Source: a virus (Duplodnaviria > Heunggongvirae > Uroviricota > Caudoviricetes). From it: 10,232 bases of DNA. Made by a program: the position numbers. The stretch is taken from the IMG/VR virus record IMGVR_UViG_2896607866_000002. One strand, written 5' to 3'. How positions within the stretch are numbered: the first letter of the stretch is position 1; the number at the start of each line of letters is the position of its first letter. Positions 3,201-6,200 of this stretch are shown piece by piece.

Positions 3201-6200
3201 TATAAATATCGAACAGAGGGGGTACAGGATGTACGGTATGGCCATGAAATGTATTACAGCCCCGGCAGTAACACCGTTTCGTGGAGATTTTGCGCACCTT
3301 CGGGACACGGGCTGTCAGGGATGGCGATATCGGATACCGGCCGTAACTCAGCGGATAACGTTGACGGTGTGTATTACCGACCACTGCAAAAACTGATTAA
3401 TGGCACCTGGTATAACGTAGCGAGTATTTAACAATGTTGCATTTAAAAAATATTACTGCGGGTAATCCGAAAACAGCAGAACAATATCAGATGACAAAAC
3501 GATATTCGGTCACCTGGCTTTTTTCAGAAGACGGAAAAAACTGGTATGAAGAGCTGAAGAATTTCGCCAGCGACACAATAAAAATAGCTTACACCGGAGA
3601 TGGTCGCGTGGTGTGGGTCGGTAAGGATGTGACAGGCATCGAGCCACGCAATGCCAGCGTTATCGAAGTTCCGGATATTACCGCTAACCGACGGATTACC
3701 GCGCCGGGTTACTGGTTTTACCGCAATGATGAATTTGTCTTTGACTACAGACTCAAAGCGGAAGATGAGCGTGATGCCCTTCTGGCTCAGGTCAGTGCCC
3801 GGACAGGGGAATGGGAAGAAGACCTGCTGCTGGGGTTAATCAGCGACGAAGATAAAGAAAAGCTGAAAGCCTGTCGTATTTACGCGAAATCGCTGCAGGC
3901 GATGGATTTCAGCACCATCACTGATAAATCCTCATACAACGCCATTGAATGGCCGCCTCTCCGGAAGGTTCTTCCTGATTTAATTTATCGCGAGAAAAAC
4001 AATGTCTGTAGTGATATCAGGTGCGCTGACTGATGGCGCAGGTATCCCCATGTCCGGATACCATATTATTCTGAAATCCCGGGTAAACACCCCGGAAGTG
4101 GTGATGAACACTGTTGCTGATGTGATGACAGGAAACGATGGTGAATACTGTTTCCATGCGCGGACTGGAAAATATGGTGTGTATCTGAAACAGGACTGGC
4201 GCAACGAGTACAACGTTGGCGACATTGCTGTATATGAGGACTCAAAGCCCGGCACGCTGAATGACTTTCTGATTGCTCCTGATGAGGGCGACCTGAAACC
4301 GGATGTCGTCAAACGCTTTGAGGAAATGGTGGCGCAGGCGCAGCAGAGCGCCGGGGCCGCAGCCGGAAACGCACAGCAGACGGCGCAGGATGTGGCGGCA
4401 GCCGCAGGTTATGCCCGCGCAGCAGAACAGGCCAAAAATGACATTGATGCTGCGCTGACCGGCACCCTGAAAACGGCTAACCATCTGTCTGAAATCGCAG
4501 CAGCAGGCGAAAAGGCACAACAGAAGTCCCGGGATAATCTGGGGCTGAAAAGTGCGGCCACGATGGAAGCACAGAGCGACATTTACGACCGGACAAAAGG
4601 CCGTCTGGCGATACCCGGCGCATTCGGCTTTGGGTGTGCTTTTCTGCCTGAAGATGTTATCCGTTTTGACACTAAGAGTGATTTCCTGGCCTGGGTAAGG
4701 AATGTGCTGCCAGTTGAATATTCCGTTGCTGGCCCCTACGGCATCATCATACCCGACACACGGTTTGAAGGGGGGCTCAGCATCCGGTGGACTGATGCAC
4801 GCCCTGAGACAACAGAACCGCGGTACAGAGCCAAATCCCTTACTTTTTACGGCATTAACGGCCCCATTTATCACACCCGCTACTGCTACTGGCCCATATC
4901 CAGACTGACTGGGTGAAAATAAATATAACCACAGAAGATATTATTTACAGAATCGTGGCGAGCTCTGTCCGCAACAGATGGGGAGACCCTGACATTGGCG
5001 GGCTGATTATTGCTGCGTACCAGGGAGAAGCTGACGGTGATAAAGTCATCAGACTTGTCAGGGGGCAGTCATACAGAGGCTCACGACTGGGACCGGTGGG
5101 GATTTCAGTGCCCAGTACTCCCACCGGAACGTATATAGCATCCCCACAATTTTTCATTACGGGATGTTCAGAGCATTCATTACCGGGGTCATATTGCGCC
5201 CTGTCCGGGGTGCCGGATGCTCATGTCTCTGGCGCAATGCCCGGGCTTTTTATTCGCACATCGTGAGGAATGCACCGTGGAAATTAAAAAAATCATTAAT
5301 CCCCGTTATACCGAAAGTGGCGCAGTAGACTGTGACGTTTTTTTTGACGACAGGGACCAGGCAGTCCCCTACACAGCCACCGCTGATGATGTCGCACCGA
5401 CGGGTCAGCGAATCTGGCAGGAACTGCAAAGTGGCAAATGGGGTGAGATAGCCCCATTCACTGTGACACCAGAAATGCTGGAAGCGGCCAGAGAGGCCAG
5501 ACGTCAGGAAATTGAAGCATGGCGCACAGAACAGGAGGCGAAGCCGTTCACGTTTGAATGGAACGGTCGTATCTGGAATGCTGGCCCCGACTCACTGGGC
5601 CGCCTGTCCCCGGTAGTCATGCTGGCAAAATCCGACATTGTACGGGACGTGATGACGTGGGGTGATGCCGATAATCAGCAGGTGAAACTGTCGATGCCGG
5701 AACTGGAAGAACTGGCCACAGCGATGATACAGGCCATTGTTGAGCGCAACGATGAGATTTATCGCCGTCAGCGTGAAATGAAAGAGGAGCTGAGCGGTCT
5801 GGATGATTTGGCTTCAATTCGGGCGTTTGACGTTGAGTAATGAATAAGCCGCAACTGGCGGAATCACAGAAGACCGCTTTGCTTACCGAAGCGGAGTCTG
5901 TCATCCGGCCGCCGGGGCGTGCTGTCAGGCTGAACAGGGAAACGGATGAATCCGGGGAGGCCCGGGGGCGGGCCTCTGTTTTTCCGGAGTCAGTCCGGTC
6001 TGTGGTTTATGCGATGTGATTATGAATGGTGCAGTTGTGAGTCGTTTTCAGACAATCGCAGGGCCAGTACCTCGTCAGTCAGCTGACGGTAAATCTGCTG
6101 TTCAGTCTCTCGCATCACCTGTGCACCGGCTTCCCTCTCCGCATCCGCATCACCGCTCAGACCTGATGCTTTCAGCCGGTCAGCCACCCTCTGAGGGTAC

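Follow-up and report, generated by a model that had tools for sequence, protein, structure and literature searches.

Results

Organization of the locus

Within the window, i.e. the whole stretch of 10,232 nt that was analysed, an IS3-family element recognised by its IS domains (1617..2773, minus strand) lies just upstream of the C-terminal fragment of a first tail fibre (2913..3431, plus strand). The fragment is similar to phiP27 L54, its 5' part is missing, and it matched the tail-fibre families of PHROG with E-values down to 2e-44. The tail-fibre assembly gene of this fibre follows at 3434..4033 (plus strand) and was identified as a phiP27 L55-like Caudo_TAP gene (tfa; Pfam PF02413, E 2.1e-25). 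A 1-bp deletion after position 3952 adds 18 codons to tfa and carries it into the start of the next ORF; the intact form encodes 181 aa.

The next three ORFs were present as described in the original prediction: ORF1 (4002..4916, plus strand, 304 aa), ORF2 (4913..5266, plus strand, 117 aa with a GTG start) and a third one ending at 5840. ORF3 (5277..5840, plus strand) is intact and encodes 187 aa when counted from its GTG codon. A 59-aa ORF (5840..6019) with a sub-threshold match to a fragment of PF02413 (E 0.0048) comes next, and the ipaH gene further downstream is intact and convergent with ORF3. No baseplate genes were detected upstream in the window. The tRNA scan of the window resulted in no hits. 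None of the five ORFs had a match in NCBIfam either. An invertible fibre segment of the Gin/Pin type was set aside, as all the fibre genes are on one strand.

ORF1 and ORF2 are parts of one tail-fibre gene

ORF1 comprises an anchor, an Ala/Gln-rich shaft and the start of a distal domain, and its exact protein product is deposited as SUI68433.1 of Shigella flexneri. The similarity to the N-terminus of lambda Stf, noticed in the original prediction, was confirmed by Pfam phage_tail_N with an E-value of 1.4e-70; residues 1-132 matched PF08400 with 235.9 bits compared to the cut-off of 26.6. Lambda-type phage records aligned with residues 1-110 at 47% identity, and the PDB chain 9e7m ("Tail fiber protein") matched residues 1-92 in the PDB sequence search (E 1.5e-16). 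The same search with the repaired fibre gave no match outside the N-terminal anchor.

ORF1 had been considered the only one of the three products with recognisable similarity, which does not hold for the other two: ORF3 matches Pfam DUF4376 and phrog_1141, and ORF2 matches the C-terminal end of phrog_2636 (positions 456-567 of 568, E 1.9e-45). ORF1 and ORF2 match the opposite ends of this single PHROG family. In tblastn, ORF2 matched nothing but the 3' ends of annotated tail-fibre genes, and it was aligned with the C-termini of phiP27 L56 and Av-05 gp76. The C-terminal motifs LVRGQ..GSRLG, LPG.Y.ALSG.PD and GLF.R are all inside ORF2, which is described here as the C-terminal tip of the ORF1 fibre and not as a gene of its own. 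The search for protein homologues of ORF2 yielded only six clusters, nearly all of them "partial" fragments, and thereby no usable length distribution.

When one CTGG is restored at the junction, 4002..5266 (plus strand) becomes a phiP27 L56-like tail-fibre gene of 422 aa; as it stands, it is a frameshift-split pseudogene. The repaired product was about 98% identical to WP_001343146.1, a "prophage tail fiber N-terminal domain-containing protein", and could be aligned with phiP27 L56 from end to end (residues 1-422, 40% identity). ORF1 and ORF2 are fused in the relatives, namely in enteroinvasive E. coli (EIEC; 422 aa), phiP27 (L56, 490 aa) and Av-05 (gp76, 416 aa), and are therefore regarded as one fibre gene. 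The continuous ORF from the anchor to the distal domain thus holds in the relatives and is interrupted in the window by a 4-bp deletion. The intact gene would encode a Stf-type anchor, a shaft rich in Ala and Gln and, as the presumably receptor-binding part, a distal domain of about 220 aa.

The original prediction preferred three separate, translationally coupled genes encoding a short Stf-like fibre and two accessory proteins of 117 and 187 aa, with a frameshifted longer fibre gene as the less favoured option. The GTGA overlap on which the coupling was based does exist (GTG at 4913-4915 overlapping TGA at 4914-4916), so that a start codon is available, and the 117-aa ORF is annotated as a protein by gene callers in some Shigella records. 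However, the single ORF of the homologues, which the prediction itself had named as the sign of a frameshifted pseudogene, was found both in the intact relatives and in the outgroup phages, and the overlap arises only via the 4-bp deletion: in the intact relatives, this GTG codes for an internal Val (...L T G W V K I N...). No Shine-Dalgarno motif was seen in the sequence upstream of GTG 4913, and the cluster members are called "partial" phage tail proteins by NCBI. Three separate genes are accordingly very improbable, and the less favoured option proved to be the right one for ORF1 and ORF2.

Origin of the 4-bp deletion

The deletion site was mapped to 4909..4912 (plus strand), where the window carries a single CTGG compared to the tandem CTGGCTGG of the intact relatives, and the codons downstream are shifted by one frame. 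The EIEC relatives, about 98% identical to the window, read ...GACTGGCTGGGTGAAA at the junction, of which one CTGG has been lost in the window. In pairwise alignments with three EIEC loci, each having one ORF of 421-422 aa, the extra CTGG was the only difference at the junction. The premature TGA and the apparent overlap at 4913 are due to this loss. One copy of the tandem repeat was most simply lost via replication slippage; the resulting frame shift at codon 304 would have created both the premature TGA that ends ORF1 and the apparent downstream "gene" starting from a former internal Val codon.

To determine the distribution of the allele, the junction was inspected in ten independent Shigella contigs, which had been obtained from GenBank and Logan read assemblies and from one gut metagenome. 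Nine of them carried the identical deleted junction, and the deletion is therefore a true allele. The opposite view, according to which the deletion is an error of sequencing or assembly and absent from the real gene, could refer to the location of the deletion in the short tandem repeat CTGGCTGG, as short tandem repeats are a source of indel errors on some sequencing platforms. Such an error would have had to recur in contigs from different projects and platforms, a lambdoid J-lom context among them, and the exact 117-aa product of ORF2 was found in 194 index blocks. In addition, the adjacent tfa gene contains a second independent frameshift. An error is hence extremely improbable.

An equally remote explanation is programmed recoding, in which a -1 shift at ...CUG ACU GGG UGA would produce some full-length fibre in the manner of lambda G/GT. 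ORF2 is indeed in the -1 frame relative to ORF1 and open back to 4856, and a stop codon in the A-site can stimulate slippage. However, no slippery heptamer of the type X XXY YYZ was detected around 4900-4916, and the two-frame layout is not conserved, as both close and distant relatives are in frame. The gene contains further breaks in other Shigella copies (contig L008), and the remnant has no baseplate that could carry such a fibre.

The DUF4376 gene and its expression signals

ORF3 matched Pfam PF14301 (DUF4376) with an E-value of 2.4e-17 and 63.8 bits compared to the cut-off of 25 (residues 90-195 of the 207-aa form), and phrog_1141 with an E-value of 2.5e-87. Its identity with phiP27 L57 was 74%, and that with Rac-SA53 tail4 was in the same range (74-75%). 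PF02413, the Caudo_TAP domain of lambda Tfa-type proteins, had no match in ORF3, and the PDB sequence search with ORF3 yielded only a chance match to FrbJ (E 0.77). In the AF2 model (pLDDT 88.5), three N-terminal strands are seen together with a helical body and beta-hairpins, and the best structural matches of the model in the viral library were DUF4376 proteins. The separate gene and, most likely, its GTG start were correctly recognised in the original prediction, and the description of its product as chaperone-like agrees with the published DUF4376 family, some members of which, such as gp27 of Alteromonas phage V22, are tail-fibre chaperones according to experiments, whereas the statement that no family could be identified is not valid, since ORF3 is a clear member of DUF4376.

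The RefSeq start of ORF3 is ATG 5217, which results in a protein of 207 aa (WP_000930146.1). Based on the N-termini of the homologues, the gene most likely starts 20 codons later, at GTG 5277. The N-termini of phage homologues, M(M)QIKEI, align with V-E-I-K-K-I at 5277, the E. coli homologues are 187-192 aa long, and distant representatives align residue 1 to residue 1. A Shine-Dalgarno-like GAGGAA (5265..5270, plus strand) overlaps the fibre stop codon TGA at 5264-5266, as had been noted earlier, and is separated from GTG 5277 by 6 nt, or by 7 nt when counted from the GAGGA core.

The terminator reported at 5957..5983 as the end of the cassette is real. It is an intrinsic terminator (5956..5983, plus strand) between the convergent DUF4376 and ipaH genes and is formed by the hairpin GGAGGCCCG-GGGG-CGGGCCTCT followed by GTTTTT. 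The stem at 5956-5977 consists of 9 bp, including 7 G-C pairs. The determined folding energy was -27.8 kcal/mol (z = -3.1), and none of the 200 shuffled sequences folded as well. Being located 116 nt 3' of the DUF4376 gene, this Rho-independent terminator would form the end of the late tail operon, ahead of the convergent cargo gene ipaH. A promoter scan of 2800-6200 revealed no sigma-70-like site.

The dN/dS values between the window and the EIEC copies were about 0.45-0.5 for both genes and are based on very few substitutions, so that relaxed selection is neither proven nor disproven by them.

Conservation of the fibre-DUF4376 pair

The DUF4376 gene directly follows the fibre gene in every phage relative examined. 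Among the phage records with ORF2-like sequence, it starts at most 12 nt downstream in all ten. The fibre stop codon and the DUF4376 start are separated by a 10-nt gap in the window, and the two genes overlap or are at most 12 nt apart in phiP27, Rac-SA53, Av-05 and seven further records. The pair was found in combination with different anchors in temperate myovirus-like prophages, in lambdoid prophages and in one lytic phage of the Vequintavirinae.

The gene order of the window corresponds to that of phiP27 (NC_003356), in which the L54 fibre, the L55 tfa, the L56 fibre (490 aa) and the L57 DUF4376 protein (188 aa) are encoded one after the other at the right end of the prophage, with an ATGA overlap between L56 and L57. 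Unlike in the window, the phiP27 fibre is intact and its shaft is longer, and L57 is followed by attR, the end of the prophage. The fibre of the window is frameshifted, and the DUF4376 stop codon there is followed by a tfa fragment, the terminator and ipaH.

The closest counterparts are the EIEC alleles WP_001343146.1 (422 aa) and WP_000551130.1 (DUF4376), which adjoin ipaHb in E. coli FDAARGOS_944 and its relatives. They share about 98% nucleotide identity with the window over 3900..6100 and have the same neighbours, tfa on the upstream side and the terminator region and ipaH on the downstream side. In contrast to the window, CTGGCTGG is present and tfa has an extra C, and both genes are intact. 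In the lytic phage Av-05, gp76 (416 aa) spans both fibre halves in one ORF.

In comparison with lambda Stf/Tfa, the N-terminal anchor of the fibre is homologous to that of Stf, and in the Shigella contig L008 the module is located after J and lom, i.e. in the position of stf-tfa in lambda. However, the distal domain is unrelated, and the downstream partner in the window is DUF4376 instead of Caudo_TAP (Tfa).

An arrangement similar to that of the window is known from gp26/gp27 of Alteromonas phage V22 and gp8/gp9 of phage A5, in which the gene directly 3' of the receptor-binding fibre encodes about 190 aa with DUF4376 as the C-terminal domain (PMC7289586, PMC10579305). The elements described for V22 gp27 and A5 gp9, three strands at the N-terminus, a helical body and hairpins, also occur in the ORF3 model, and the predicted architectures may be similar. 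No significant similarity was detected between V22 gp26 and the 422-aa fibre, the best match being a short ...GL.SAAT...GAFG.G stretch with an E-value of 0.19.

Discussion

The region 4002..5983 is very probably the distal tail module end of a degenerate phiP27-like prophage of S. flexneri, which originally contained two genes, a tail fibre that is now frameshifted and a DUF4376 protein, its predicted chaperone. It is an ordinary phage pair of a tail fibre and a putative DUF4376-type assembly chaperone that has been annotated before. Outside correct annotation its significance is small. In annotations, 4002..5266 should be given as one frameshifted tail-fibre pseudogene and not as two proteins. 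The case also demonstrates that a 4-nt stop/start overlap can stem from an indel and not from translational coupling.

By homology with V22 gp27 and its relatives, we infer that ORF3 encodes the cognate intermolecular chaperone of the fibre. The DUF4376 protein would attach to the nascent fibre at its C-terminal tip, for which ORF2 codes, either nucleate the trimerisation of the fibre or cap it, and then probably be released. In V22, a functional receptor-binding protein gp26 is obtained only with gp27, which the mature fibre lacks (PMC7289586), and the H-fibre of Campylobacter CJIE1 requires the downstream DUF4376 gene (PMC7882524). The fold regarded as characteristic of the V22 gp27-type chaperones consists of an N-terminal three-strand sheet, an alpha-helical body and a beta-hairpin "tentacle" and is similar to that of the T5 and K1F intramolecular chaperone domains. 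The alignment of ORF3 with V22 gp27 by hhalign was weak but covered nearly the whole protein (probability 83%, E 9e-6, 150 columns), and pairwise BLASTP resulted in an E-value of 3e-5. A chaperone role of ORF3 is to be read with the caveat that the homologues are only about 21% identical and that the hhalign probability is only 83%.

Alternatively, the DUF4376 protein could be a permanent distal part of the fibre, either an adhesin at the tip or an accessory protein that stays on the fibre, comparable to T2 gp38 or Mu Tfa, which would leave the conclusion on ORF1 and ORF2 unchanged. Homologues of ORF3 are labelled "tail fiber protein" by PHROGs and in several GenBank phage records, a cap sitting on the fibre tip has been proposed (PMC10579305), and the N-terminal half varies between the subfamilies, as expected for contact with a variable partner. 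On the other hand, V22 gp27 and mature gp26 did not co-elute in size-exclusion chromatography (PMC7289586), and A5 fibres lacking the chaperone are functional (PMC10579305). A permanent tip component is therefore considered unlikely, and a chaperone that is released is the preferred reading. The enterobacterial pairs phiP27 L56/L57 and Av-05 gp76/gp77 would be well suited as models for studying the DUF4376 chaperone class in E. coli.

The locus is an IS-disrupted phiP27-like tail remnant in S. flexneri, beside ipaH. The truncated fibre, the frameshifted tfa, the first fibre cut beside the IS element and the lack of baseplate genes in the window indicate that the module is now a relic, probably without function today. 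It illustrates in textbook fashion how a prophage decays around a virulence cargo gene (ipaH) that has been retained in Shigella. In the literature covered, no specific description of ipaH islands as phiP27-like remnants was found. ORF3 is still intact, which could reflect a residual function or just recent decay.

According to a further, rather improbable reading of the locus, recombination would take place preferentially at the 3' end of the DUF4376 gene, as a conserved "docking point" at the close of the late operon for the exchange of unrelated cargo cassettes between otherwise unrelated prophages. In a weaker variant, the intact ORF3 may be retained for a function unrelated to phage assembly. 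The DUF4376 stop codon marks the end of the homology of the window with phiP27 or Rac-SA53; in the case of the EIEC copy flanked by sitABCD, the homology already ends about 30 nt upstream of this codon. Homologues of the DUF4376 gene adjoin attR or share a record, as a co-occurrence at the record level, with ipaH (the window), with eib immunoglobulin-binding genes (P-Eib ORF-191) or with the LT-IIb toxin (SerU-LTIIb).

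The disrupted tail fibre gene

The locus was found to be a module of a known type that has already been annotated, within a prophage remnant undergoing decay. The elements behind the original prediction of three translationally coupled genes were all located on the + strand: ORF1 (4002..4916, 304 aa), ORF2 (4913..5266, 117 aa, GTG start) and ORF3, which ends at 5840 and comprises 207 aa from ATG 5217 or 187 aa from GTG 5277. The stop/start overlap, read from the sequence, consists of GTG 4913-4915 over TGA 4914-4916. GAGGAA at 5265-5270 overlaps TGA 5264-5266 and stands 6 nt before GTG 5277, or 7 nt when counted from the GAGGA core. 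The terminator behind ORF3 is also genuine: the hairpin at 5956-5977 (9 bp, 7 G-C) is followed by GTTTTT and has a folding energy of -27.8 kcal/mol (z = -3.1 versus shuffles). The observed features are thus real, but the interpretation favoured over a frameshifted longer fibre gene was wrong for ORF1 and ORF2 and largely right for ORF3.

With window positions 3900-6100 as the megablast query against complete E. coli genomes, ten enteroinvasive strains matched over 87% or more of its length, with 96-98% identity. At the three enteroinvasive E. coli (EIEC) loci inspected (L001, L002 and L003), PGAP calls a single 421-422-aa product as 'prophage tail fiber N-terminal domain-containing protein' and that of the next gene as 'DUF4376 domain-containing protein'. 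The base-by-base alignment of the fibre gene with these loci revealed a single frame-changing difference. The junction reads ...CCAGACTGACTGGCTGGGTGAAAATAAA in the relatives and ...CCAGACTGACTGGGTGAAAATAAA in the window, which lacks one CTGG of a tandem pair relative to the EIEC copies. Restoring the CTGG resulted in a 422-aa ORF, reading ...ISRLTGWVKINITTEDII... and about 98% identical to the EIEC proteins. ORF1 and ORF2 are a single gene disrupted by a 4-bp deletion. Since the restored ORF reads through the junction, the GTG 'start' of ORF2 is an internal valine codon, and the TGA overlapping GTG 4913 is present because of the frameshift alone.

A continuous ORF, named in the original prediction as evidence against separate genes, was detected in the EIEC relatives (421-422 aa), in phiP27 L56 (490 aa) and in gp76 of the lytic phage Av-05 (416 aa); the coupling of ORF1 and ORF2 is therefore not retained, and the GTGA overlap is a frameshift product. 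In tblastn, L56 aligned with residues 1-422 of the repaired protein as one piece. In the multiple alignment, L56 and gp76 crossed the junction uninterrupted and had C-terminal motifs inside ORF2 in common. The tail-fibre family phrog_2636 (568 positions) was matched by ORF1 at 1-136 (E 1e-148) and by ORF2 at 456-567 (E 1.9e-45). As the L56, gp76 and phrog_2636 matches span both halves, the single-ORF state is ancestral.

Occurrence of the deleted allele

The CTGG deletion represents a genuine allele. Proteins identical to the 304-aa and 207-aa products are the Shigella flexneri entries SUI68433.1 and WP_000930146.1, respectively, and the exact 117-aa protein was present on 174 contigs and in 194 index blocks. 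For the junction check, ten contigs were retrieved from GenBank assemblies, Logan read assemblies and one gut metagenome. The deleted junction was identical in nine of them, and the intact junction occurred in the remaining one (L009).

One of the nine, L008 (GCA_000754175.1, KN150720.1; 1..5870), has a lambdoid setting with gpJ and Lom upstream. The frameshifted fibre tip, the DUF4376 gene, a 59-aa ORF and ipaH there directly follow gpJ and lom, which is the lambda stf-tfa position. The fibre of L008 is in at least three pieces, and its DUF4376 gene is split (57 + 121 aa). The L008 copy is more broken than that of the window; paralogous copies thus differ in how far they have decayed.

ORF3 and its association with the fibre tip

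The downstream ORFs had been described as lacking recognisable homology, and this description does not hold: besides the phrog_2636 match of ORF2, ORF3 matched Pfam PF14301 (DUF4376) with 63.8 bits (cut-off 25) and phrog_1141 with an E value of 2.5e-87. Clear homology of this kind to known families was, after the continuous ORF, the second observation that the original prediction had named as counter-evidence. The family is of moderately large size: clustering at 90% identity gave 1792 clusters, and at 50% identity there were 320 representatives with E<=0.001.

The RefSeq start for the Shigella and EIEC proteins is the ATG equivalent to 5217, which gives a 50-nt overlap with the fibre gene. 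GTG 5277 is preceded by GAGGAA at the correct spacing. The phage homologues begin with M(M)QIKEI, opposite V-E-I-K-K-I at 5277, the homologues from E. coli and Salmonella, at 73-80% identity, have lengths of 187-192 aa, and residue 1 of distant representatives aligns with residue 1 of the 187-aa form. These three observations favour GTG 5277, the start proposed originally, over ATG 5217, and the RefSeq/PGAP start of WP_000930146.1 (207 aa), inside the fibre gene, is probably 20 codons too early in the Shigella and EIEC entries. ORF3 was thus largely borne out as a separate, coupled, chaperone-like gene, belonging to the known family DUF4376.

Homologues of ORF3 were present in 27 phage records (tblastn). 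The closest were Rac-SA53 tail4, phiP27 L57 and that of Actinobacillus phage vB_Apl-pPE4 (74-75% identity), followed by SerU-LTIIb 'stf2' (68%) and the genes of the Av-05 group and P-Eib ORF-191 (36-40%). The phiP27 order of L54 (fibre), L55 (tfa), L56 (fibre) and L57 (DUF4376) is that of window 2913-5840. L56 and L57 share an ATGA overlap, and in Rac-SA53 and Av-05 the fibre and DUF4376 genes overlap by one base. In all ten phage records with ORF2-like sequence, this sequence lay 3'-terminally in an annotated fibre gene and a DUF4376 homologue began at most 12 nt downstream. Given this constant pairing, with variable N-terminal anchor and phage type, the C-terminal tip and the DUF4376 protein travel together, as would be expected of an assembly factor cognate to the fibre tip.

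In the Alteromonas myovirus V22, gp26, which is the receptor-binding fibre, works only if co-expressed with the downstream DUF4376 protein gp27, and the mature fibre elutes without gp27 (PMC7289586). The Campylobacter CJIE1 H-fibre likewise requires the downstream DUF4376 gene (PMC7882524). Phage A5 can dispense with the homologous chaperone, which AlphaFold-Multimer modelling suggests to sit on the tip of the fibre as a trimeric 'cap' made up of three strands at the N-terminus, a helical body and a beta-hairpin (PMC10579305). Against a profile built from homologues of ORF3, V22 gp27 (MN877442) aligned across 150 columns (hhalign probability 83%, E 9e-6), and with ORF3 itself it aligned at 21% identity (BLASTP E 3e-5). 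The AlphaFold2 model of the 187-aa ORF3 (mean pLDDT 88.5) contains three N-terminal strands, helices 41-52 and 65-88, a pair of hairpins and, at the C-terminus, a long helix (140-173), in qualitative agreement with the published A5/V22 architecture. Its best matches in the viral model library were DUF4376 proteins of many tailed-phage kinds; no significant match was obtained among solved structures.

Decay and cargo of the remnant

The left end of the window carries a ferredoxin-like gene (1..261, - strand) and a phage-type integrase (470..1576), which may be 3'-truncated, as the Pfam match is restricted to model positions 14-117 of 172. Beyond an IS3-family element (1617..2773, - strand; orfA 2471..2773, orfB 1617..2438), only a 3' fragment of a first tail fibre is left (2913..3431). 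Its Caudo_TAP assembly gene (tfa, 3434..4033) precedes the fibre pseudogene and the DUF4376 gene. Compared with the EIEC relatives, tfa has its own 1-bp deletion after 3952 (GGCCCGTCTC to GGCCGCCTC), by which the intact 181-aa product ending ...WPVSPEGSS becomes one of 199 aa with replaced last residues, overlapping the ORF1 start. By alignment, it adds a second, independent frameshift to the remnant. No baseplate genes were found upstream within the window, whereas genes for baseplate J and DUF2612 persist in the EIEC relatives.

Homology to phiP27 and Rac-SA53 stops at the DUF4376 stop codon; the tfa fragment, terminator and ipaH therefore belong to a different cargo segment. The 59-aa ORF (5840..6019) starts on that stop codon (TAATG), contains the terminator hairpin and has been annotated in the majority of the Shigella copies examined. 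It matched phrog_7784 end to end (E 1.7e-44) and, weakly, the middle of Tfa-type assembly proteins (Caudo_TAP E 0.0048, sub-threshold; phrog_136 E 5e-4). It resembles an internal piece of a tfa gene that came along with the ipaH cassette.

The intact 608-aa IpaH (6020..7846, - strand; LRR_TTSS and NEL domains), convergent with the fibre-DUF4376 module, is of the T3SS effector E3 ligase type and is the sole obviously useful gene of the remnant. In EIEC, the related genes bear the annotations ipaHb, ipaHa or ipaHd and lie at different sites of the chromosome. After ipaH, the EIEC relatives keep only a 'DNA invertase' fragment. In the window, an IS110-family transposase (8524..9720, 398 aa) is followed by a resolvase/invertase gene (serine recombinase/DNA invertase; 9771 to beyond the window end; resolvase domain E 9e-52), which may be what is left of a Gin/Pin-type system for fibre switching.

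Cargo genes are usually placed at the end of the tail operon. The records AF151091, AF151674-6 and KU052038, with the DUF4376 homologues P-Eib ORF-191 and SerU-LTIIb 'stf2', contain virulence cargo as well (eib genes, LT-IIb toxin), a co-occurrence within records that fits this placement and parallels ipaH in the window.

The pS was several-fold higher in the DUF4376 gene (0.085-0.16) than in the fibre gene next to it (0.013-0.023). Within 5640..5740 the DUF4376 gene has a short patch, KSDIVRDVMTWGD, strongly unlike the EIEC KSVTAQTHMAWSD and nearer to the phiP27 and Rac-SA53 KSDTARNEMTWGD, a pattern suggestive of mosaic recombination or of gene conversion between paralogous copies.
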